Shown here: positions 1,843 through 18,786 of the stretch, in pieces
Layout: every line of letters starts with the position of its first letter
Position numbering within the stretch: position 1 is the stretch's first letter
Assembly: GCA_000092065.1 (NCBI GenBank)
Contig: CP000587.1
Strand: one strand, 5' to 3'
Source: Ostreococcus lucimarinus
Lineage: Eukaryota
DNA: 64,000 nt
Made by a program: the position numbers and the translations under genes
Notes under the pieces: generated by a model
Told to the model about the DNA's origin: nothing
Database searches by the model: none
The model's input: the letters and a program-made list of their open reading frames with translations, nothing else

Positions 1843-3408
1843 TTAGCGAGGCATCCGAAATGCCAAGTATCGCCGAACCCATCGCTCGTAATCCTCGCGT
1901 ATGATCTCCCAAATCGCGAGAGACAGCTGCTCTTTCTTCGTCGGAGGGTGAATCATCGTCTTCACTACTGTGTTTCGCAGGGCGATGTTCGATTTTTTGT
2001 TCACGCCAGCGGAGTGACGCCAAATCGCCGACTTTGTTCGATCTGCGACGTCGATGGAGTCACCAAATCCGAATCGCTCGCCAGCTTCAACGATTCTAAG
2101 CCTGACCGCGGGTGCTTGCAAGACGTGTTCTACGCAACTCGACACGTGGAAGTCTACGGCGGCGATCGGTATGTCGTCGCGGCGCATGAAACCACCCCAC
2201 GTCTTGGCTGCATCCGTTGCTTCTCGCGCGGCGTCGAATGCGAGTTCGAGATACGAAAGCCACGGCGACTTATCGTCAATGATTTCCGGATTGCGCAGCT
2301 CGTCGTACTCGAGCGGTACATCATTACTTTTTGCCGTCTGCTTGAACCGATTGAACCATACGTGCGAAAAACCGTGTAACATGGCGACGTCTCCGGGCAT
2401 TCCGCCAAAGTGCGCACGAATCATCAAAGCCTGAACGACGGTGGCCTCGGCCGCCGGCAACGCGGCCTCGACGTCATTGAGCGCGAGCATGCCACTGGCT
2501 GAATCGCCAGCGACGCCGTACGAAACGCTATCTTTGATGCGGATAGCCGCCATTTCGCCAGCTATACGAGCCACCGCGGCGCGCAACGCGTCCGTCGGCT
2601 CGAATCCTTTGCTCGTCGCGCACATGAGCCACGTCAACAGTACGACATCTGGATGCAGGATAGCATCTTCTAATGAAATGATCACGAGTCTACGGACGCA
2701 TTCGATGAGCGCTTGCGGGTCTAAACACATGTGCATGGCTACGCGCGAAGCAGCAGCAGCGCGACCTCGCCTGATATTCTTCTGCAATGCGGATTTGATC
2801 ACGCTCAACTTGAGCTGTTCGCCATCTGCACTCGCTCGACTCGCGCGAACTTCAGCGTACTCTTTCGCGTCCCGTAACGCTTCGCGCAACGCGTTCTCTT
2901 GATCTGGACCATCGTCGCTCGCGACGTCCGTCATCAACTTTAGCGTCGTCGAACACGTCGTACCGCTCGCCAATTTCTCTTTAACCACGACTTGACTCGC
3001 CCACTTCGCCGAAGATTCCGCCTTAATAGATTTCCCCAACGACAACGACACGTCCCAACGTGAACGCGCCGCGTCGTAGGTCAACAAAAATATGCGCTCG
3101 CGCTCGCGCTCGCGCTGCGCCGCCATCATGCTCGCGAAGGCGTTCGTCGCCGGTTTTGGTTTTGTCGCCGGCTGTTTCTCGGCAACCTCAGCATCGCTGT
3201 CGCCATCCTCTCGACGTTCACGTATAATGCACGTCCCGACGTGAGATTCCAAAAGCATCTTGGCAACGTTCTTTGCGCATAAAGGACACCGTTCGAATCG
3301 CGACGATGAATCCGTGGAAGTTCGCGCCTTCTTCGCGCCGTCCGCCGCGCTCGGCGTCTTAACAGCCGGTGCAAAATACGCGGCGATGCTCCCTCGTTTA
3401 TGCGTCAT
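1843..3408 (-). CDS. UBZ4-type (Rad18-like) zinc-finger protein with an uncharacterised C-terminal domain.
   Basis: The N-terminus carries CPLCAKNVAKMLLESHVGTC (a C-x2-C...H-x3-C UBZ4 pattern). It is followed by a roughly 400-aa region of normal composition with no motif I recognise. Confidence 0.55.
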   Translation of the reverse strand: MTHKRGSIAAYFAPAVKTPSAADGAKKARTSTDSSSRFERCPLCAKNVAKMLLESHVGTCIIRERREDGDSDAEVAEKQPATKPKPATNAFASMMAAQRERERERIFLLTYDAARSRWDVSLSLGKSIKAESSAKWASQVVVKEKLASGTTCSTTLKLMTDVASDDGPDQENALREALRDAKEYAEVRASRASADGEQLKLSVIKSALQKNIRRGRAAAASRVAMHMCLDPQALIECVRRLVIISLEDAILHPDVVLLTWLMCATSKGFEPTDALRAAVARIAGEMAAIRIKDSVSYGVAGDSASGMLALNDVEAALPAAEATVVQALMIRAHFGGMPGDVAMLHGFSHVWFNRFKQTAKSNDVPLEYDELRNPEIIDDKSPWLSYLELAFDAAREATDAAKTWGGFMRRDDIPIAAVDFHVSSCVEHVLQAPAVRLRIVEAGERFGFGDSIDVADRTKSAIWRHSAGVNKKSNIALRNTVVKTMIHPPTKKEQLSLAIWEIIREDYERWVRRYLAFRMPR

Positions 3409-3715
3409 CGCCCGAGACGCGCGCTCACCGCGAGTTCACAGTGTTCGTCGTCACCTCTCGCACACTCACTCGTATCGCCTCGCTCAATCCTTTCGCGTCG
3501 TGCAACGACTTCGTAATCAAGATTTGAACTCTCGCGATGGCGTCCTTGGGTTCGATTTTCGACGTCGTCGCGGCGTGGCCTCCGATCTTCTTGCGCGATA
3601 TGGGAAAGTCGTTCGCGCGCGTCTCCCTCGAGCGTTTCATCGACGCGCGACGCGCGGACGAGTGAAGTCGGTGCGCGAGGCGCTGAGTTGTTTTGATTTG
3701 CTCGGGCTATCACAG

Positions 3716-3845
3716 CTATCGCGCTACTTCTACAGTTCTACTCTTTTCCTTCTTTTCCTTCTTTTGCTTCTTCTCCTTCTTGTCCTTCTTCTCCTTCTTC
3801 TCCTTCTTCGCCTTTTCGTTTTTCCGACGCGCGTCGTTCTTCGCA
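3716..3845. repeat. (ctt/ctc)n coding microsatellite.
   Basis: ttccttcttttccttcttttgcttcttctccttcttgtccttcttctccttcttctccttcttcgcc. It encodes the K/E-rich tail of the G-patch-like protein on the minus strand. Confidence 0.85.
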
Positions 3846-4984
3846 ACGTCGTCGTCGTCGTCGTCGCCGAAGTCGGTTCGTCTGACGCCCGTCCACTCGC
3901 TCTTCAACACGCCTCTGCCGCCGAGACCTCGCTTCGTGCCCTTGGCGACGTTTGTTTCGTGCGCGGATTTAAATAAAGCCTCTTGATCGTTCTCGGTGAA
4001 TCCCTTGCCGCGCTTAGCGCGATCGGCGCCGTCTTCGTCGTCCGCGGCGCCGTCGTCGTTCAAGTCGCGCTCGCGTTTCGAGCCGACCAAGCCGCCCCAG
4101 GCGAAACCCGCGCGCGTCCACCAATCGCTGAGTTTGGTGCTCAAAGACTTTTCACCCTCGTACGACACGCCCGAAGGTCTCACCGTCGTTTCGACCGCAC
4201 CTTCGCCGTCGGATTTGCGCTTTTTCTTGTCCTTCTTAGACTTTTCCTTTGGCTTTTTCTTCGTCTCCGCGGCGGCGGGCGCCGACGCGCTCCCGCGTTG
4301 AATCCCATACTTGGCCAACTGTTCCGCCTCAAACTTTGCGATGCGTTCGAGCTTACCCACGCGCCCACCGAACGTGGATCCGCGATGATTATCCTCCGCC
4401 AGCTCTCGCATGAGCTGCAAATCGCTCTTCGATCCGCTAAACGCCACGCCGTCGCGTCCCGTCGCCGTCCCCAGTCTCGCCGCGACTTCATCCTCGCTCG
4501 AATCCTCGCTCTCGCTCGAGTCTCCATCGCGTCCCGACGTCGACGTCGACGACGTCGTCTTCCCATCCTCCTCGCCTCCGACGACGCGCGCAATCTTGCT
4601 CGCCGCGTTCGCGTACGTCCCCTCCCACCACTTTTCGTCCCACGCGTACCTCGTCTTCCTCTTCCCCACGCCCGCGTTATCCTCGCGCTTCACCACCTCG
4701 ATCGCCTCCGCGCGTCCGTGTCGTCTTTTCCCCAGTCCATCGCCCCTGTCGCGCGCGCGGGGTCGTTCGCGCGCCGTCAGTCTCCGCTCTTCTCTTCGGG
4801 GTCGGGCGTCCCGCCGCCGGTCGTCGGTCGCGTCGGTCGCCTCGGTCGTCGGTCGCGCGCACTTGGACCATCCCATCGCGCGCAGCACGCGCTCGCCCAT
4901 GCCGCCGTACGACTTCGCCCCCGGCGCGGCGTCGTGCGTCGGCACCTTCATCGCGTCGTCGCCCGCGCGCGTCTCTGCGGGCAA
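3716..4984 (-). CDS. G-patch-like nucleolar/RNA-processing protein with a Lys/Glu-rich C-terminal tail.
   Basis: The N-terminus carries GMGERVLRAMGWSKC (similar to the G-patch GxxxLxKMGW motif). The C-terminus is KKEKKEKKDKKEKKQKKEKKEK, encoded by a (ctt/ctc)n microsatellite at 3716-3840. The actual start may be the internal Met near 4951. Confidence 0.5.
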   Translation of the reverse strand: MPAETRAGDDAMKVPTHDAAPGAKSYGGMGERVLRAMGWSKCARPTTEATDATDDRRRDARPRREERRLTARERPRARDRGDGLGKRRHGRAEAIEVVKREDNAGVGKRKTRYAWDEKWWEGTYANAASKIARVVGGEEDGKTTSSTSTSGRDGDSSESEDSSEDEVAARLGTATGRDGVAFSGSKSDLQLMRELAEDNHRGSTFGGRVGKLERIAKFEAEQLAKYGIQRGSASAPAAAETKKKPKEKSKKDKKKRKSDGEGAVETTVRPSGVSYEGEKSLSTKLSDWWTRAGFAWGGLVGSKRERDLNDDGAADDEDGADRAKRGKGFTENDQEALFKSAHETNVAKGTKRGLGGRGVLKSEWTGVRRTDFGDDDDDDVAKNDARRKNEKAKKEKKEKKDKKEKKQKKEKKEKSRTVEVAR

Positions 4985-9399: not shown

Positions 9400-12300
9400 T
9401 CAGCCGTCGTCCGTTTCGTATTCGCTCTCTTCGTCGTCGCCGTCGTCTGTCTCATATTCGTCGTCGTCGTCTGTCTCATATTCGTCTTCGTCGTCGTCGT
9501 CGTCGTACCGCGTAACCGCGGGTCTACGACCGTGTAGAGCGCGGCGGAGTAGTGCTCGGCCGAAATGAAGATCATCTTCCGCGTCGTCACTGTCGCTATC
9601 GATGAAGTCAGAGTCGTATTCGCTGGAATCGTCGTCTCCCGAGTGCACGCCTTCGCCGTCGTCGTCGTAACGCACCCAATCGACCTCAGCCTCGCGCACC
9701 ATCTCGCGTAGACTGTTAATTTGATGCCGAATGCGCGCTTCGTTGATGTTTACCCGACCGTCTGCATCCTCAATGCGTTCTTCCGAGTCTTCGTCCGAAT
9801 AATCTTCTTCCCATCCATCGTGGTCCATGTTCAAAACCATGGGCTCGATCTCTTCGTGCTCGTCTTCGACGTCTGATTCGTCATCGGCTGGTCGTAGTCT
9901 CCCAACTTCGTGCAGACGCACGGTTGACTCGTGTGTGTTCAAGATATCATACTCCACCGTAGCGCAAAGAGTGTCGGAATTCACATCCCACGCGGCGTCA
10001 ATCATGCCCGAAGGAACGTCGACAGTGCAAATATCTGAATAATCGAGCATGTCGATGGTACAAAAAGAATGCTTGTACGGATGATGACACTTGCGCAAGG
10101 ATGAAAGCGGTGGCTCGTTTCTAGGGTGTAAAATGTGCGCCATACCCACGGTGCCGGTGAGGTTGAACTTTAGCGCTGCACGGTCGAGTGAAGGCACCAC
10201 GCGGAGCAAGCGTGATGACCGAATGTCCCACACTTCCCGCCCGATAATGATTTCGTTTCCTCCCGGATGGAAACACGCGCCCGCAGCCTCTGAATAACGG
10301 TCGAATCGTCGAATTGGCTTATCATTCGCCAATCGTACATCCCAGAGTACTTCATCCCACAAAATCAAGTCGTCGCTTGGAGAAAATGAAACTTCGTCGT
10401 TGTTTTTCGTCAATAACGGAGGGCCGCCAGTGTTCGAGGTGAGCCTGCGTGTAACGCGATGTGTTTCCATGTCCGCGAGCTCGACGACTGATTCGAGGCT
10501 ACCGCTGACAAATTGAGAGCCCGTGGAGTTTATGGCGCACCCAGAGTGACCAGAGCACCAAAGCATGTAGGGCGCATCGTCTGGATTCGGGAGGCTCCAA
10601 ATTGAGCAGCTTTCCACCGACGTAACGGCGAATAACGGTGTCGGGCACAGCGGACCAGCCGCCGCAATCTTGCGAATGGCGCCACTGACCCTCCCTGGCG
10701 TGGCGGCTATTTCCAAGAGCTCTCCAGATATGTGGTCGTACAGATGAAGCTCGCCGTCATTGTCACCGATGATGATTTGTTCCGGCACGCCATACAAGAA
10801 AGACGCGGCGGTGAATAAGCAATCATTGCCCCGAATCGCGCGCAGCGGTCTGAATCTGCTGTACACAAAGTGTCGATCAGCTCGACGCATGCCGGCATCC
10901 CAGCCAGTCACGTTAGCCCACTCACGCTGGCGAAGACGAGCCGTCAAGTTTCGCGGTGCTTCAAGAATACGTTTTGGCTGAGGACACTGATGCGGCGCAA
11001 GCAAAGAGAAGGGAGCGCACGCCGTAATCGGCGCGGCGCACTGCCGATGCTGAGCTCGGAGGTATTGCGTCAGAATAGAATCTAATCGCGAACGCACGCC
11101 ACAACCCGTTTCACCGCGTGGTGCATCGGAGACCAACACACCGGGTGTAGGAAACTCTTTGTGAACGCGCTCCTTCACGCTTGGCGATGGTGTTTGGTGT
11201 TCATTCGCACAGCAGGCGCGTTCTGTTGCACCAACTGCAATGGGTGGTGTGATAAGAGATTTCCGTATTTCTTCTCCGTTAGTTTTTCGCTTTTTGCCTC
11301 GTCGTGTGCTGCAAGGAGTAACAACAATACCATTTGCTCCTGGTTTGCTCGTTTTGACCGAATTGACCGAAGTTGTGACCACTGCGGGTGAAAGTTTGCT
11401 GGCTCGACTTGATTCTCCACGCCGTGGCCCTTTGCGCGGCGGCGCTTGAGTGGAGCCTTGCTCGAGCCCAAGAGTGAACGGTTCGCCCGCAATCCCGAGC
11501 ATACCGCGTGCCGCACCAGTCATTCTCGATCGTGGTGCACGCCGATACATCTTTGTGCGAGCTGTCTTGCTCTTGAAATTTAGCTTGAGGCGCGGCGCAG
11601 GCGAAGGACACAAACGACCTACACTCGCGCTGCGACCCGGGCGCTCCATCCCCGCCTCGTCCACGAGCGAAGCCGCGGTACTCGTCAAGCCAGCCGCGAC
11701 GAGATGCTCATGCATTATTTGTAAAAGCTCGTTGTGCGGATATCGAACTTTAGTTGCAGCTGCAATCAAGTGTCGTTCGAGTTTCGCCAGAGGCGGCGCC
11801 GCAGCGTCGGACGCCACCGCGGGCGTCGTCGCTTTGACGTTTGCAAACCCTGCGGTTGCCGCGATGAGCTCCACGGCGCATCGATGAAACTCTGTGGCGG
11901 CAGCCTGAACCGTAGCAGCTGTACCGTTTTCGCGCTTCGAGTCCACGATCGCTAGTTCGTCAAACGCGGAGTGTTGCGTCGTCCCCGTCTCGCGCAAAAG
12001 CTCTGAAAGATGCCGCGCTATTTGCAGCGTCTGTAGAGTGTTTGCGATTGACGCATCGCGAGATAACCCGAGCAAGGCACGACAACAAAGTGCTCTAGAT
12101 ATGTTCATAGACGGCTGAGGTAACGTCTTCGACGTTTTAAACAGCAGGTTGAGCAAAGACTTAACGCCAAAAGCCTCTCGGATATGTTTCCGCCCCGCCT
12201 CAAACGTTTCCTCCATTCGCGCGTAGTCAAAAACTGAGAACGACTTGCCATCGATGCTGTGAGAGCGCTGTAACTTCCCACTCTGTGATTTAGCATCGGT

Positions 12301-14199
12301 ACTATGCAAGGCGTAAGGGGGAGAAACGAGATTGCAAACGACTTTCAAAGCCTCGACCACGGCTTCAGTGTCGACCGCCTCTGCCGCATTCTCGACGACA
12401 TCTATGAGAACGTACCCAGAAGAGTAATATTCATCAAATTGCGCCTTTGCCGTGTGCACTCTTCCAGTGGGATGTGACGTCACAATCTTTAAAACGCTTA
12501 AAGATCCCAAAACGCACTCGCGAAGAGTTTTTTCACCCGGAGCCAAAGTGAGCAAGTCGAGCATCACCTTCGGCCCTTTTTGCGCCACGAAGGCTTCTAT
12601 GACGAGCCACGACTTGGTTTGCATGACGGCGGCGATGCGCTTTTGGCGACTCACTAAGCTAAATAGTCGCTCCGTCGCATCGTATCCGATATCCATCGCT
12701 TGTAGCATCGCACGATTATTGGTGCTCGTACTCTTCTTCGATTTGCCCATCACCTTTTCTTCGATCGCTTTGACGTGTTGCGCAAAATGCGCGCGCATGT
12801 ACTGTCTAAGCAACAAGCTCACGTGATCTCCAGTCTCTTTCGCCTGCGAAATCTCGTTCGGAGACATCGATGGGCGCACCTTATCTACGTCTACAACCAT
12901 CACTGCCAACGTCCGAAGGACGTCAAGGACGAGCTTGAGGCCAGCCTCCGCGTCAAACGCCACGACGACGACGGGGATTTGCATGGCAAACGTCAGGAAC
13001 AATGCGGCTTGACGACGCGCGTACTCGTTGCTGCAATCCAAAAGCTCGAGCGATACTTTCACATATCGTCGTGCCAAGTCCACCTGCGGCGACACGAGAC
13101 GTTCGAGCGCCGTGGTGATGCTCGCGATACCGAATAGGCAGCGCGTCAAATTGTAGTACGTCATAGGCCCTCTGGGAATGTTTAGCAACAACTTTGCGCC
13201 ACCGGCGTCAATGAAAGAAATCGCAAACTTCCGATGCGCCAGAAACGCACTGACGATAGAGAGCGCTTCGGATAGTTGAGGATCTCCAGGCCAAGCCGAA
13301 GTTTCTCCGTGGTGCCGCTTGAAGCCGTACTTCTCAAGCCACCCGTTTTCGCGGGGTCCCGCGACGAGACGCAGAGAGAGTTCGAGGACACCGTGCTTGA
13401 GTGCCTCTGCAAAACACTCAACATAATCGCCTATTGCTCCCACACACGTCAAGCGCGCTTGCATTAACGAGCGATGAAGATCGTCGTGATCGCCCGCATC
13501 GAGTCCGCTCGAGCAACCTTCGCCGGCGTCCTCGGCTAAACGCAACGTGTCCTCGCAAGAAATTTCCCACGCGGGCATGTCTTCGCCACCGCGACAGATC
13601 AACCGCACGAGCGGTATCAACAAACTCTCCATCACCCCGTTTCGTATGTTATCGCTCGCCGCGGTATCCGTGACGAGTAACGAGCAAAGCGCGCCCATCG
13701 CGTACGTCTTCAGCCGCCGCATGTCCAATTCCGCCGTCGGCCCGAGCAAGTGTTCGTTATCTCGCCTCGCCTCCATCGCTTGCACGTACGACCGACCCTC
13801 AAACGCGATCTCGCTCAGCACGTTGCAATACAAATCTTTCGTCGCATCATCGAACGGAAGGATTGAACATTTTTGCGCGTTTCGCATTCGGCACCCCAAC
13901 CCGCACGCGCGCATCACCCGCATCGCTCCCGCTTGCTCGCACAGTGCGCTGACGTACATCTGCTCCCCCACGGCGATGTCAACGATCGACCGCCGCCACT
14001 CAGGCTTGAACGGCATGTCATCGATCGCCTTCAGCCCGGCGTACTCGCGTCGGAGCGCGCTCGAGCACGACCCGCTGAAATCCTCAAAGCCTCGTTCCTC
14101 GCGTTCGATCGCGCGCGCCAGCGCGTGATACGACCGCGTCGCATCGTCAATAGCGCCTCGCGTGCGCGCCGCGACGACGCTTTTCCACGCCTCCTCCAT
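9400..14199 (-). CDS. DCAF1: DDB1- and CUL4-associated factor 1 (DCAF1/VprBP) homologue, a CRL4 substrate receptor.
   Basis: Several blocks match the human DCAF1 sequence as I recall it: KFAISFIDAGGAKLLLNIPRGPM, QYLRAQHRQCAAPITACAPFSLLAPHQCPQPKR, HFVYSRFRP, VLWDVR...FHPGGNEIII...EVWDIRSSRLLRVVPSLD (WD40) and LHEVGRLRP, followed by a long Asp/Glu tail. Start placed at MEEAWKSV (14199); ORF sequence upstream of it is GC-rich read-through. Confidence 0.85.
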   Translation of the reverse strand: MEEAWKSVVAARTRGAIDDATRSYHALARAIEREERGFEDFSGSCSSALRREYAGLKAIDDMPFKPEWRRSIVDIAVGEQMYVSALCEQAGAMRVMRACGLGCRMRNAQKCSILPFDDATKDLYCNVLSEIAFEGRSYVQAMEARRDNEHLLGPTAELDMRRLKTYAMGALCSLLVTDTAASDNIRNGVMESLLIPLVRLICRGGEDMPAWEISCEDTLRLAEDAGEGCSSGLDAGDHDDLHRSLMQARLTCVGAIGDYVECFAEALKHGVLELSLRLVAGPRENGWLEKYGFKRHHGETSAWPGDPQLSEALSIVSAFLAHRKFAISFIDAGGAKLLLNIPRGPMTYYNLTRCLFGIASITTALERLVSPQVDLARRYVKVSLELLDCSNEYARRQAALFLTFAMQIPVVVVAFDAEAGLKLVLDVLRTLAVMVVDVDKVRPSMSPNEISQAKETGDHVSLLLRQYMRAHFAQHVKAIEEKVMGKSKKSTSTNNRAMLQAMDIGYDATERLFSLVSRQKRIAAVMQTKSWLVIEAFVAQKGPKVMLDLLTLAPGEKTLRECVLGSLSVLKIVTSHPTGRVHTAKAQFDEYYSSGYVLIDVVENAAEAVDTEAVVEALKVVCNLVSPPYALHSTDAKSQSGKLQRSHSIDGKSFSVFDYARMEETFEAGRKHIREAFGVKSLLNLLFKTSKTLPQPSMNISRALCCRALLGLSRDASIANTLQTLQIARHLSELLRETGTTQHSAFDELAIVDSKRENGTAATVQAAATEFHRCAVELIAATAGFANVKATTPAVASDAAAPPLAKLERHLIAAATKVRYPHNELLQIMHEHLVAAGLTSTAASLVDEAGMERPGRSASVGRLCPSPAPRLKLNFKSKTARTKMYRRAPRSRMTGAARGMLGIAGEPFTLGLEQGSTQAPPRKGPRRGESSRASKLSPAVVTTSVNSVKTSKPGANGIVVTPCSTRRGKKRKTNGEEIRKSLITPPIAVGATERACCANEHQTPSPSVKERVHKEFPTPGVLVSDAPRGETGCGVRSRLDSILTQYLRAQHRQCAAPITACAPFSLLAPHQCPQPKRILEAPRNLTARLRQREWANVTGWDAGMRRADRHFVYSRFRPLRAIRGNDCLFTAASFLYGVPEQIIIGDNDGELHLYDHISGELLEIAATPGRVSGAIRKIAAAGPLCPTPLFAVTSVESCSIWSLPNPDDAPYMLWCSGHSGCAINSTGSQFVSGSLESVVELADMETHRVTRRLTSNTGGPPLLTKNNDEVSFSPSDDLILWDEVLWDVRLANDKPIRRFDRYSEAAGACFHPGGNEIIIGREVWDIRSSRLLRVVPSLDRAALKFNLTGTVGMAHILHPRNEPPLSSLRKCHHPYKHSFCTIDMLDYSDICTVDVPSGMIDAAWDVNSDTLCATVEYDILNTHESTVRLHEVGRLRPADDESDVEDEHEEIEPMVLNMDHDGWEEDYSDEDSEERIEDADGRVNINEARIRHQINSLREMVREAEVDWVRYDDDGEGVHSGDDDSSEYDSDFIDSDSDDAEDDLHFGRALLRRALHGRRPAVTRYDDDDDEDEYETDDDDEYETDDGDDEESEYETDDG
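9425..9500. repeat. Imperfect tandem duplication (unit about 24 bp, tcgtcgtctgtctcatattcg) inside the acidic tail of DCAF1.
   Basis: The sequence at 9441-9490 repeats and encodes DDDEYETDDDDEYETDDG. Confidence 0.6.
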
Positions 14200-14560
14200 C
14201 TCGCGCGCGTTTCGTTTCGATTCCGCCGCGAACGTCGACGCCGCCAACTTCTCCACGCTCGGCGGCACCGCGTGCTCGCGCGTTCGACGCCCCCGCGCGC
14301 GAGGCGTCGCCTCGCCGCCCGCGCCGCCGCTCGTCGTCGCGCGCGGCATCGCGTCGCCGCGCGGCATCGCGCGCGCGCCGCTCTGCCGAGCCGCCGGCGC
14401 GTCGCCGGCATTCGTCGACGCGTTCGAGTCGGCACAGACGCGCTCGCGAACGCATCGCGCGCCGAACGAGCGCGACGACTCGGCGTCGCTCGGTCGCGCG
14501 CGTCGTCGGACCTCGCGCCGCGCCCGTCGTCCGCGTCGCTCGCGCGCGCGCGTTCGGACG
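14200..14560. promoter_or_regulatory. Putative bidirectional promoter between the divergent DCAF1 (minus) and ThrRS (plus) genes.
   Basis: A 360-bp head-to-head spacer. Inference only; no motif was identified. Confidence 0.3.
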
Positions 14561-14845
14561 ATGTTTCGATTGACGACGACGTCCCCGGCGTTGGCGACGC
14601 GATGCGCGCTCGGACGGCGCATCGCGGGCGCGCATCGCGCGCGAATGACGACGTGCAACGCACGGCGGCACGATGTCGTCGGAACGCGCGTCGTGGGCGC
14701 GCGACGAGACGCGAGGACGCGATGGACGGGGGCGGGCGCGAGCGCGGCGGCGAGCGATAAGGCGAACGCGACGGCGAGCGACGCGGAGCCGGTGAAACTG
14801 CTGACGAGCGATGAGAGCGAGAATTTGTTGAAAATACGACACACG
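14561..14845 (+). CDS. Threonyl-tRNA synthetase exon 1: presequence plus linker, ending ...ENLLKIRHT.
   Basis: Starts MFRLTTTSPALATRCALGRRIAGAHRARMTT (transit-peptide-like). It is in the same frame as exon 2. Splicing gives ...IRHT|SAHVMAMAVQKVFP, matching the bacterial ThrRS motif RHSCAHLLGHAIKQLWP. Confidence 0.5.
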
Positions 14846-14998
14846 GTGCGTTGGAAATGCGAGGCGTGGGGAGACTTGCGTCGGTGGTGGATCGGACGAC
14901 GACGCGCGAGGGGCGAGCGGAGGGGGTTTGTGCGCGACCTGAACCACGCAGGGACGAAAGGAGACTGACGATGGGTTCGCTGATTTTACGCTTCGCAG
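14846..14998 (+). other. Intron (153 nt) in the ThrRS gene.
   Basis: GTGCGT donor at 14846; branch-like CTGAC at about 14964; pyrimidine run ttttacgcttcg followed by a CAG acceptor at 14996-14998. An in-frame TGA at 14966 and 14981 rules out read-through. Confidence 0.6.
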
Positions 14999-16705
14999 AG
15001 CGCGCACGTGATGGCGATGGCGGTGCAAAAGGTGTTTCCGAGCGCGCAGTGCACGATCGGGCCTTGGATCGACCGGGGATTTTATTACGACTTTTACTAC
15101 CCAGAGGGTTTCACCGATCAAGACATGAAGAAGATTCAAAAGGAAATGTATAAGATTATTCGCAAGGATTACCCGCTTCGCAGGGAGGAAGTGTCGCGAG
15201 AAGAAGCCGAACGCCGAATCCGGGAGATTAACGAGCCGTACAAGCTCGAAATCTTAGAAGCCATCAAGACGGAGCCGATTACGATTTATCACATCGGCGA
15301 CGAGTGGTGGGATTTGTGCGCGGGACCTCACGTGGAGTCCACGGGCAAGCTTGATCAGAAAGCGTTCGCGCTCGAAAGTTTGGCTGGGGCGTACTGGCGT
15401 GGTGACGAAACGAAGCCGATGTTGCAGCGCATTTACGGCACGGCGTGGGAGAATGAAGCACAGCTTCAGGCGTACAACGATTTCAAGGCGGAGGCGAAGC
15501 GTCGCGATCACCGAACGATCGGTAAGGATTTGGGTTTGTTCTCCCTTCAACAAGATAACGCTGGCGGCGGCTTGGTGTTTTGGCATCCGAAAGGCGCGCA
15601 CATGCGACACATGATCGAGACGTACTGGAAGGATCTCCATCTGGCGCGCGGGTACGAGCTCTTGTACTCACCGCACGTCGCCAGGCAAGAGTTGTGGAAA
15701 ACCTCTGGTCACAGCGATTTTTATTCCGAGAACATGTACCAGCCCATCAAGGTTGAAGATGAAATGTATCAGCTCAAACCGATGAACTGCCCGTTCCACA
15801 TCGTCGTTTACCAAGACGGATACTACTCGTACAAGGATTTACCCATTCGTTGGGCTGAGCTTGGCACGGTGTATAGATATGAACGTAGCGGCACCATGCA
15901 CGGCTTGTTCCGAGTGAGAGGTTTCACGCAGGATGACGCGCATATATTCTGCCTCCCGGATCAAATCACAGACGAGATCAAGAGCGTTCTCGATTTGACT
16001 GAAGAAATTCTGAGCACGTTTGGTTTTAAGGAGTTTGAAGTCAACCTATCCACCAGGCCGGAAAAGTCTGTCGGCGACGACAAGATTTGGGACACCGCGG
16101 AAGGTGCGCTTAAGGACGCATTGCAAATGAAGGGATGGGATTACATCGTCGACGACGGCGGTGGAGCGTTCTACGGGCCGAAGATTGACATTAAGATTTT
16201 GGACGCAATCGGGCGTAAGTGGCAATGCTCCACGGTGCAGCTCGACTTCAACCTGCCGGAGCGATTCGACCTATCCTACGTCGATCGCGAGAACGCAAAG
16301 CAGCGACCAATCATGATTCACCGCGCCATTTTCGGTTCCCTTGAGAGATTCTTCGGTATTCTCACCGAGAACTACGCCGGGGAGTTCCCGTTGTGGCTCG
16401 CCCCGATTCAAGTGCGCTTGCTTCCTGTGACGGACGAAGTCAGCGATTATACCGAAGGCGTCGCGAAAAAGCTCCGCGATGCGGGCGTGCGCGTTGAAAT
16501 TTGCACCGGACAACGTCTCGCTAAGCTCGTGCGCACGGCTGAGAAGGCAAAGATCCCGGTCATGGCGGTCGTCGGTAGAGAAGAAGCGGAGAACAACACG
16601 TTGGCTGTGCGTACGTTCAAGGATGGCGACGTCGGTACATTGTCTGTCGACGAAGTGTTGTCACGCGTCACCACCGCGAACGCGACAAAGGGTCAAAGCT
16701 TCTAG
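14999..16705 (+). CDS. Threonyl-tRNA synthetase catalytic core plus anticodon-binding domain (class II aaRS), exon 2.
   Basis: GPWIDRGFYYDF, class II motifs (FRVRGFTQDDAHIF, GGGAFYGPKIDIKILDAIGRKWQCSTVQLDF, MIHRAIFGSLERFFGILTE) and a C-terminal anticodon-binding domain. The ORF-track start at 15008 is a GTG. Confidence 0.9.
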   Translation, partial: SAHVMAMAVQKVFPSAQCTIGPWIDRGFYYDFYYPEGFTDQDMKKIQKEMYKIIRKDYPLRREEVSREEAERRIREINEPYKLEILEAIKTEPITIYHIGDEWWDLCAGPHVESTGKLDQKAFALESLAGAYWRGDETKPMLQRIYGTAWENEAQLQAYNDFKAEAKRRDHRTIGKDLGLFSLQQDNAGGGLVFWHPKGAHMRHMIETYWKDLHLARGYELLYSPHVARQELWKTSGHSDFYSENMYQPIKVEDEMYQLKPMNCPFHIVVYQDGYYSYKDLPIRWAELGTVYRYERSGTMHGLFRVRGFTQDDAHIFCLPDQITDEIKSVLDLTEEILSTFGFKEFEVNLSTRPEKSVGDDKIWDTAEGALKDALQMKGWDYIVDDGGGAFYGPKIDIKILDAIGRKWQCSTVQLDFNLPERFDLSYVDRENAKQRPIMIHRAIFGSLERFFGILTENYAGEFPLWLAPIQVRLLPVTDEVSDYTEGVAKKLRDAGVRVEICTGQRLAKLVRTAEKAKIPVMAVVGREEAENNTLAVRTFKDGDVGTLSVDEVLSRVTTANATKGQSF

Positions 16706-17875: not shown

Positions 17876-18559
17876 TTAAAGGTATGGATTCCGCGGTTTC
17901 GCCGTCAAAGCGACGCCGTCCAAGGCGCGCTTCAAATCTTCCTCGAATCCTTGCTCCAGAGGATCTCCCGGGCCGTACCTGCGAAGGACTCGGCCATCGC
18001 GACCGACTAAAAACTTGGTGTAATTCCAAGGAATTTCTCCGTCGAACGGCGGTCTCTTTAAAAACTCGTACACCGGCGATTGCTTCGCCGAACTCGTGAC
18101 GTCGTCCACCAACGGCGCCGTCAAAACCGCATCCGGATCATCCTTGAATTCCTCGTACGACGCCGGATCGATTCCTTTGCACCTGACCGGTTTAGCCTTG
18201 ACCGCGATTTTATCCATCACCGGAAACGTATCGACGCCGAATTTCTTATACGCGTACGCGCGTTCCATCTCGCTCGTTCCCGGCGCTTGGCACCCGAACT
18301 GATTCGCGGGAAACGCGATGATTTCAAACCCCCTATCGCGATACGTCTCATACATCCGCCTCAGCGCTGGGTAGTTGCTGTTCACCAGAGGTCACTCGCT
18401 CGCCACGTTGACGACGACGCTCACTTTGCCCCGATACGCCGCCAGCGGCGTCGGTTTCCCGTACTGCATCACCGTGAGATCGTACAACGACTCGGGCGAC
18501 TCCGCCGCGCGCGCCGGCGTCACCGTCACCATCGCCGCGAGCGTCGCGACGCGCGCCAT
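17876..18559 (-). CDS. GPX: Selenocysteine-containing glutathione peroxidase; the in-frame TGA at 18392-18394 encodes Sec.
   Basis: ORFs 18392..18784 and 17876..18385 lie on the same strand and in the same frame, separated only by TGA-CCT-CTG. The joined product is ...LYDLTVMQYGKPTPLAAYRGKVSVVVNVASE-U-PLVNSNYPALRRMYETYRDRGFEIIAFPANQFG...WNYTKFLV.... The TGA falls exactly at the GPx catalytic position (NVASxU; Tyr at U+7 as in human GPX1/4). Start placed at MARVATLAAMV (18559); upstream Met codons are alternatives. Confidence 0.8.
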
Positions 18560-18786
18560 CGCCCGTCGTCGCGTCGTCGTCGCGTCGTCGTCGTAAGCAT
18601 CGTCGACGGTTACCGCGACACCCCTACCGTTCGTCGCGCGCGTCGTCGTCGCCGTCGCGCGCGCTCGCCTCGTCGTCGCGCGCGTCGTCGTCATCGTCCG
18701 CGTCGCGCCCGCGCGCGCGGCCGTCGTCGACATGAATCGCCGCGCCGGCGCACCTCCGCGCGTCACAGAGTGTCGCGTCCGCATCC

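Follow-up and report, generated by a model that had tools for sequence, protein, structure and literature searches.

Gene Organization

A nuclear gene for threonyl-tRNA synthetase (ThrRS) of Ostreococcus lucimarinus CCE9901 lies on the plus strand of the 64-kb stretch of DNA analyzed here (the window) and consists of two exons, whose joined reading frame encodes a protein of 663 amino acids. Exon 1 (14561-14845; 285 nt) opens with the ATG start codon at 14561 and encodes a presequence-like part rich in Arg, Ala, and Thr (residues 1-77; 14561-14791), followed by a short segment ending in KIRHT (residues 78-95, VKLLTSDESENLLKIRHT; 14792-14845) that aligns with residues 57-74 of E. coli ThrRS. 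Next comes a phase 0 spliceosomal intron of 153 nt (14846-14998), which carries GTGCGT at its 5′-end (14846-14851), a branch-point-like CTGAC at 14965-14969, and CAG at its 3′-end (14996-14998). Two TGA codons in the frame of exon 1 lie within it, and their removal with the 153 nt to give one frame of 663 codons agrees with the original prediction, which was made from the sequence of this DNA. Exon 2 (14999-16705) begins with SAHVMAMAVQKVFP and closes with a TAG stop codon (16703-16705). It encodes the remainder of the N2 editing domain (residues 96-245; 14999-15448), as located by Pfam tRNA_SAD and by alignment with 1tje and 1qf6, then a stretch (residues ~246-560; 15449-16393) that comprises the linker helix and the class II catalytic domain, and finally the anticodon-binding domain (residues 566-652; 16409-16669).

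The predicted exon and intron coordinates are borne out by relatives. In a related Ostreococcus lineage with conserved gene order (L001), the orthologue is intronless, with exons 1 and 2 fused in one ORF, and pairwise alignment with the spliced coding sequence of the O. lucimarinus gene crosses the junction without gaps. Another Ostreococcus lineage (L003) has an intron of 146 nt, a length that is not a multiple of 3, at the identical codon boundary; it has the GTGCGT, AGACTGACG, and CAG signals in common with the 153-nt intron, and the interior has diverged. The transcript of a relative (P0088) contains a complete ORF of 658 amino acids and reads through the junction as ...LLKIRHTSAHVMAMAVQ. 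Because of the intronless orthologue, the intron at the same position, and the transcript across the junction, the splice is accepted, and 14846-14998 is, on this comparative evidence, a genuine GT-AG spliceosomal intron, the transcript support being that of a relative's mRNA.

Upstream of the ATG, an intergenic region of 193 bp (14368-14560) separates the gene from a divergent neighbor on the minus strand, whose probable ATG is at 14367 and whose first residues, MPRGD, resemble the MPRGRRD of its L003 orthologue. The region presumably serves as a shared promoter and 5′-UTR, and its length leaves no room for additional coding exons. Elsewhere in the 64-kb window, no Rfam match was obtained at the gathering threshold, no SECIS element was found by Rfam near the GPx gene, and no tRNA genes were found.

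Catalytic Core and Editing Domain

The product is a member of a known enzyme family, the bacterial-type ThrRSs, to which the present analysis adds only a small correction of annotation. It matches the TIGR00418 thrS equivalog profile with 711.9 bits (cut-off, 383.65), residues 93-653 corresponding to positions 1-562 of the 565 in the profile; because position 1 falls on residue 93, the match crosses the splice junction. The protein aligns with residues 50-628 of E. coli ThrRS (1qf6) at E 2.6e-155, and residues 264-652 align at E ~1e-112 with structures, 1evk among them, in which E. coli ThrRS is truncated at the N-terminus. Pfam places tRNA-synt_2b (PF00587) at residues 348-554 (E 4.6e-50) and recognizes the anticodon-binding domain as HGTP_anticodon (PF03129; E 1.9e-18). 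The catalytic strings KPMNCPFH, FTQDDAHIF, and IMIHRAI are conserved, being identical or nearly so in E. coli, and within them MNCP.H, QDDAHIF, and IHRA make up what we take to be the zinc-site context of ThrRS, on the assumption that the zinc ligands are those of the E. coli enzyme.

The original prediction held that the RHSxAH motif, at which it let the catalytic ORF begin, follows roughly 240 residues of TGS and editing domains, and hence that both domains are missing. This placement is wrong. In E. coli ThrRS the motif R72-H73-S-C-A-H77 is the first element of N2 and is preceded by only the TGS domain of ~60 residues and a short linker; because RH(S/T)xAH corresponds to E. coli 72-77, the start of N2, the editing domain is present, its coding sequence being divided between the final codons of exon 1 and the initial ~450 nt of exon 2. 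Residues ~84-245 correspond to the E. coli editing domain, the isolated editing fragment 1tje aligning at residues 49-223 with E 3.5e-33; tRNA_SAD (PF07973) is matched at residues 189-241 (E 4.5e-13), and residues 93-213 give weak matches to AlaX and the AlaRS editing domain.

All six editing-site residues checked by alignment are kept, namely H94 (14840-14842), H98 (15005-15007), K177 (15242-15244), D200 (15311-15313), C202 (15317-15319), and H206 (15329-15331), all encoded on the plus strand and equivalent to E. coli H73, H77, K156, D180, C182, and H186. The same six are present in eight of nine plastid-type homologues, the exception being a mis-spliced gene model. The residues H73 and H77 have been described as crucial for post-transfer editing (PMC5909460). 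The N2 domain, with its HxxxH and CxxxH motifs, is thus complete as judged by alignment, and the HxxxH motif is interrupted by the 153-nt intron, with H94 in exon 1 and H98 in exon 2. The Met of SAHVMAM was considered as a replacement for E. coli H77 and rejected, H73 and H77 both being kept; this Met occupies the position of H81, where homologues vary widely (Q, A, S, H, or M).

Absence of the TGS Domain

Of the canonical ThrRS domains, the O. lucimarinus enzyme lacks only TGS (N1). A Pfam search of residues 1-118 gave no match to PF02824 at a threshold as lax as E<=10, and a local TGS profile found no TGS coding sequence in 13000-15100 or in a six-frame translation of the 64-kb window; the Fervidibacter sequences P0124 and P0139, used as positive controls, do give Pfam TGS matches. 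On this point the original prediction, which saw no TGS coding sequence in the 800 bp before the gene, stands. Only positions 52-81 of the local profile, its last ~30, were matched, at the segment of residues 78-95. This segment, which plant and algal orthologues conserve as LPTxExSxNLLxIRHT, is on the basis of that match what is left of the final TGS strand together with the linker, and it runs into the start of N2.

In six plastid-type homologues no TGS domain was found by Pfam either, and in one algal member of this type (P0180) a WHEP-TRS domain stands at the TGS position. A wider proposal is that the plastid-type clade as a whole (green algae, land plants, and one homologue with a signal-peptide-like N-terminus) dropped N1 and kept the checked editing residues, with an intron splitting HxxxH that is possibly ancient; put together in this form, it is advanced tentatively and is rather unlikely to hold throughout. 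For the intron, a Malus gene model departs directly after IRHT, in view of which the HxxxH-splitting intron may be ancient.

N-Terminal Extension and Localization

As predicted, exon 1 encodes a short presequence-like N-terminus: its first 60 residues contain 13 Arg and Lys against 2 Asp and Glu and are rich in Ala and Thr. Between Ostreococcus lineages this part shows little conservation (61% nucleotide identity), and an extension of comparable length is found in all of the Ostreococcus lineages compared. The assignment to an organellar type of ThrRS paralogue likewise proved sound, the protein being 67% identical over 595 residues to the Nymphaea enzyme named "threonine--tRNA ligase, chloroplastic/mitochondrial 2" (XP_031492008.1). 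By this similarity the protein is orthologous to the "chloroplastic/mitochondrial 2" ThrRSs of land plants, and residues 1-77 are, from orthology and amino-acid composition, a putative organellar targeting peptide. The Arabidopsis counterpart, At2g04842, is described as mitochondrial and chloroplastic (PMC7564348) and as plastid/mitochondrial (PMC7066320), and a separate cytosolic (and mitochondrial) ThrRS is encoded by At5g26830 (PMC7564348).

A cytosolic, TGS-bearing ThrRS of Ostreococcus was not among the best 120 database matches to P0259, the eukaryotic-type representative used as the query, which came from animals, fungi, and protists only, and nothing specific on an Ostreococcus cytosolic ThrRS was found in the literature. 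With the expected separate cytosolic ThrRS not among these matches, an organelle-only role of the present enzyme is putative. Green algae would in general be expected to possess a eukaryote-type cytosolic ThrRS as a distinct enzyme.

Proposed Function and Alternative Explanations

Taken together, the locus is best explained as a nuclear gene of two exons for a bacterial-type, organelle-targeted ThrRS that has an intact N2 domain and belongs to a clade in which TGS was lost throughout, a reading to which we assign a probability of about 0.88. The N-terminal extension would direct import into the chloroplast, and probably into the mitochondrion too, and would then be removed; the mature enzyme would charge organellar tRNA-Thr; and the intact N2 site would clear mischarged Ser-tRNA-Thr by means of the equivalents of H73, H77, K156, D180, C182, and H186. 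Loss of the TGS domain probably goes back to the ancestor from which the whole plastid-type clade descends and is not specific to O. lucimarinus, and the former N-terminal position of the domain may now be occupied by the targeting peptide.

The public NCBI/JGI model of this gene comprises 564 amino acids and begins with MAMAVQ at Met101 (15011), and the ThrRS protein is a 100% match to a database protein of O. lucimarinus CCE9901. If this single-exon model were correct, there would be no presequence, and exon 1 would be non-coding or a chance ORF. Most metagenome gene calls, like the NCBI/JGI models, are of 564 amino acids, and long chance ORFs are frequent in the GC-rich window; however, calls of this length are the expected output of intron-blind gene callers, and a protein of 564 residues would lack the targeting sequence, both His residues of HxxxH, and the first element of N2. 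The final 18 codons of exon 1 are moreover conserved from bacteria to plants, the L001 orthologue joins both exons in a single ORF, and the relative's transcript encodes all 658 residues, so that the single-exon structure has only a small chance of being right. Because the two-exon structure is supported by L001, L003, and P0088, the public model is considered truncated. Another possibility, that a TGS domain is encoded farther upstream by an additional exon joined through splicing to exon 1 or 2, draws on nothing beyond the general occurrence of unannotated 5′ exons and is vanishingly improbable: only 193 bp lie between the ATG and the divergent neighbor, TGS-like segments are absent from all frames of the 64-kb window, the intronless orthologue and the relative's transcript begin with a presequence rather than with TGS, and the plant and algal orthologues also lack the domain.

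The original prediction itself took the enzyme for an editing-deficient organellar ThrRS lacking both TGS and N2, of the kind exemplified by yeast mitochondrial MST1, or for a second, specialized ThrRS paralogue. The absence of TGS, and an ORF that begins near RHSxAH after the last stop codon, do accord with the former, but RHSxAH marks the beginning of N2 and not its end, the 1tje and tRNA_SAD matches cover the editing domain, and the six checked residues are conserved. The MST1 structure (3ugq) aligns with residues 281-588 only of the O. lucimarinus enzyme; therefore MST1 lacks ~185 residues, comprising N2 and the linker, that are present here. An MST1-like loss of proofreading is accordingly extremely unlikely, and at the level of sequence this reading is already refuted. 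It is also very unlikely that the gene encodes the sole ThrRS of the cell, serving cytosol and organelles from alternative starts such as M1 and M29 or M101. Several in-frame Met codons are indeed present in the ORF, and no second, cytosolic-type Ostreococcus ThrRS appeared among the best 120 matches; yet that search is uninformative, because these matches were saturated by animals and fungi, eukaryotic cytosolic ThrRSs form a distinct TGS-bearing clade, and Arabidopsis retains At5g26830 as a separate cytosolic enzyme (PMC7564348).

The organelle-targeted, editing-competent reading removes a false lead, namely that of an MST1-like loss of proofreading in O. lucimarinus. It is also of small practical value: because the 564-aa model lacks the targeting sequence and the editing His residues, automated inferences drawn from it ("cytosolic", "editing-defective") would be wrong, and joining the two exons in the model brings back an ordinary organellar ThrRS. 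The lack of TGS across the clade is of minor comparative interest and might help to define the role of N1, which in bacterial ThrRS has been described as "regulating the editing function" (PMC5909460). If loss of N1 does alter the coupling of editing and aminoacylation, organellar ThrRSs would represent a natural experiment on TGS function.

Comparison with Known Threonyl-tRNA Synthetases

A scan of genome contigs returned one locus only. In a rough neighbor-joining (NJ) tree, unsupported and without bootstrap, O. lucimarinus ThrRS groups with P0286 and P0122, and the plastid clade adjoins TGS-bearing sequences. The nearest bacterial sequences, from Fervidibacter (52% identity), a cluster with a Cyanobacteriota MAG (45%), and a Calditrichaeota MAG (56%), are all TGS-bearing, and the Calditrichaeota MAG locus (L004) also codes for TGS. 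A TGS-less cyanobacterial ancestor, which might have been expected, is thus unsupported. Some naturally TGS-less bacterial ThrRSs of ~573-606 amino acids (such as P0144, P0151, and P0155) have RHSxAH within their first ~20 residues and resemble the plastid type in domain content, P0144 combining tRNA_SAD, the core, and the anticodon-binding domain with no TGS; these enzymes are, however, scattered in the rough NJ tree and are not the nearest to the plastid clade. Because of this scattering, and because the plastid clade neighbors TGS-bearing sequences, loss of TGS in the plastid clade and in TGS-less bacteria looks independent.

With canonical bacterial ThrRSs (E. coli ThrS, 1qf6; S. aureus, 1nyq), the O. 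lucimarinus enzyme aligns throughout N2, the linker, and the catalytic and anticodon-binding domains, but it lacks the TGS/N1 residues 1-~55 and carries a putative eukaryotic targeting sequence ahead of the remnant. Yeast MST1 is likewise a nuclear-encoded, organellar, bacterial-type enzyme without TGS; it differs in also lacking N2, which O. lucimarinus keeps complete. The closest resemblance is to the organellar ThrRSs of land plants (At2g04842/EMB2761 type), to which the rice chloroplast ThrRS TSV2 (675 amino acids) also belongs. These have in common with the algal enzyme a presequence, no Pfam TGS, tRNA_SAD, the class II core, the anticodon-binding domain, and the junction segment LPTxExSxNLLxIRHTxAHVMAMAVQ, whereas the O. 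lucimarinus presequence is different and shorter, and its gene has a single intron.

Gene Structure and the Intron

The threonyl-tRNA synthetase (ThrRS) gene lies in eukaryotic, gene-dense DNA (GC 55–72%), and its start codon is the ATG at 14561 on the plus strand. Exon 1 (14561–14845, 285 nt), which ends in ...KIRHT, is followed by an intron (14846–14998, 153 nt) that begins with GTGCGT, carries CTGAC 30 nt before its end, ends in CAG and has two TGA codons in the reading frame; exon 2 (14999–16705) begins with SAHVMAMAVQKVFP. Splicing of 14561–16705 yields a protein of 663 aa, and a re-reading of the sequence bore out all of the exon and intron coordinates originally proposed. The exon-2 ORF is 100% identical to P0001, a 564-aa "predicted protein" of Ostreococcus lucimarinus CCE9901. 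This public NCBI/JGI model (15011–16705) starts at Met101 (MAMAVQ) and leaves out exon 1, so that neither the presequence nor either histidine of the HxxxH editing motif is included. Many metagenome gene calls have the same 564-aa MAMAVQ start or read out of the intron (577–608 aa, as in P0090 with 577 aa and P0082 with 608 aa), which would be the expected output of intron-blind gene callers. The family itself is known and widely annotated, and the sole new element here is the corrected O. lucimarinus gene model.

Three independent sequence comparisons indicate that the 153-nt intron is real. In L001, a 101-kb metagenome contig of a related Ostreococcus lineage, which shares with the window the large divergent gene upstream and the thioredoxin-like and glutathione peroxidase (GPx) genes downstream, the ThrRS is a single uninterrupted 657-aa ORF (3001–4974), and its pairwise alignment with the spliced coding sequence is gap-free across the junction, with AAAATACGACACACG before and AGCGCGCACGTG after it. 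In L003, a locus (2205–4327) from a third lineage with 92% amino-acid identity, an intron of 146 nt is located at the identical codon boundary, and its removal is needed to keep the frame because this length is not a multiple of three. The two introns share the GTGCGT 5′ site, the AGACTGACG branch region and the CAG 3′ site, whereas their interiors have diverged (only ~57% alignable, vs. 78–88% identity in the flanking exons). Finally, the complete transcript ORF of P0088, an MMETSP relative (658 aa), runs over the junction as ...TSDESENLLKIRHTSAHVMAMAVQ....

Within Ostreococcus, the presence of an intron at the RHT/S position is polymorphic (none in L001, 146 nt in L003 and 153 nt in the window). 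The intron lies between T95 and S96 and thus interrupts the HxxxH motif, of which exon 1 encodes H94 and exon 2 encodes H98. A Malus baccata gene model (P0179) leaves all homologues directly after IRHT (IRHTFGINGAF...), which suggests that land plants also have an intron at this point, with the model running into it; the intron would then be ancient in the green lineage.

Domain Composition

Pfam places tRNA_SAD at residues 189–241, tRNA-synt_2b at 348–554 and HGTP_anticodon at 566–652 of the 663-aa protein. The NCBIfam thrS equivalog TIGR00418 scores 711.9 bits (cut-off 383.65), and its match spans the splice junction, since profile position 1 corresponds to residue 93. Among solved structures, E. 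coli ThrRS (1qf6) aligns over chain residues 50–628 (E 2.6e-155), and 1tje, an isolated N-terminal editing fragment from E. coli, over residues 49–223 (E 3.5e-33).

The original prediction placed the TGS and editing domains (~240 aa) before the RHSxAH motif and took the enzyme to look either like an editing-deficient organellar ThrRS or like a second, specialized paralogue. In E. coli, however, RHSCAH is R72-H73-S74-C75-A76-H77 (numbering from the structure alignment), and the motif therefore opens the N2 editing domain, after a TGS/N1 domain of only ~60 residues. The whole N2 domain is present in the Ostreococcus protein, including all six of the editing residues compared: E. coli H73, H77, K156, D180, C182 and H186 correspond to H94, H98, K177, D200, C202 and H206. 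These residues are also kept in two other Ostreococcus lineages, Nymphaea, Digitaria and three more plastid-type homologues, with the exception of the Malus model, which is non-homologous straight after IRHT. Double mutation of H73/H77 in ThrRS abolishes post-transfer editing (PMC5909460).

TGS/N1 is the sole missing domain. No Pfam match to TGS was found in residues 1–118, even at E ≤ 10. A local TGS-plus-linker profile, built from 29 TGS-bearing relatives, matched the spliced protein only at positions 52–81 (the last strand, linker and motif), with no other match in 13000–15100 or anywhere in the window translated in all six frames. The divergent neighbor probably starts at 14367, leaving 193 bp of intergenic DNA before the ThrRS. 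Pfam, the profile and this gap agree with the earlier claim that no TGS coding sequence lies upstream. TGS is equally absent from the plastid-type proteins P0122, P0133, P0138, P0167, P0179 and P0180 and from full-length Nymphaea P0286; it is matched in both positive controls, P0124 (Fervidibacter) and P0139.

Origin of the Plastid-Type Clade

In a rough neighbor-joining tree of 92 full-length representatives and the window protein, without support values, the plastid clade adjoins TGS-bearing sequences, namely Fervidibacter and a cluster including a Cyanobacteriota MAG, and the TGS-less bacterial forms are scattered away from it. A pattern scan of GTDB genomes gave one bacterial locus, the AT-rich L004 of a Calditrichaeota MAG (RQOG01000092.1), with a normal TGS and 56% identity to the Ostreococcus-type ThrRS over residues 89–513. 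Such identity to a plastid enzyme is high for a bacterial sequence. Because both the tree neighbors and L004 carry TGS, the domain appears to have been lost at the origin of the plastid-type clade.

Neighboring Genes

The order divergent gene, ThrRS, thioredoxin/phosducin-like, GPx and spermine-synthase-like is kept in L001 and L003. In the GPx gene (17876–18784, minus strand), VVVNVASE is followed immediately by an in-frame TGA (about 18392–18394) that occupies the catalytic Cys/Sec position, with coding sequence on both sides. This TGA is kept in the window, L001 and L003, and the three 3′UTRs share the segment GTGACGA(C/T)G(C/T)GCG(A/G)G...AAA; Rfam gave no SECIS at E ≤ 1. The enzyme is probably a selenocysteine protein. 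For the divergent gene (9400–14367, minus strand, ~1650 aa), Pfam gives no more than a weak beta-propeller match. The mechanical ORF of this gene continues across ThrRS exon 1, in antisense, as far as 14844, an instance of long chance ORFs in GC-rich DNA.

Function and Comparison with Known Enzymes

A match of 67% identity over 595 residues links the protein to "threonine--tRNA ligase, chloroplastic/mitochondrial 2" of Nymphaea colorata, in line with the organellar-type paralogue originally proposed. The Arabidopsis protein of this type, At2g04842/EMB2761, is listed as both mitochondrial and chloroplastic (PMC7564348; PMC7066320), and TSV2 of rice is a ThrRS of the chloroplast (PMC8661440). 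Residues 1–60 are rich in Ala and Thr and contain 13 Arg/Lys vs. 2 Asp/Glu, a composition consistent with an organellar presequence that may direct import. The cytosolic TGS-bearing ThrRS expected in O. lucimarinus was not among the matches listed, which animal and fungal sequences filled, and nothing specific on such an enzyme was found in the literature. Most likely, the standard ThrRS mechanism applies: the enzyme would be imported into the organelle and its presequence cut off, the class II site would charge tRNA-Thr, and N2 would hydrolyze Ser-tRNA-Thr.

The original prediction thus stands for the gene structure and for an organellar-type paralogue without TGS, but not for the placement of the motif or for an editing-deficient enzyme resembling yeast mitochondrial MST1 (3ugq), which aligns to residues 281–588 only. 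In P0180, an algal plastid-type ThrRS fragment, a WHEP-TRS domain (PF00458, E 3.1e-14) at residues 35–72 lies between the presequence and N2, the place of TGS in bacterial ThrRS. The Nymphaea organellar ThrRS lacks TGS, like the Ostreococcus protein.
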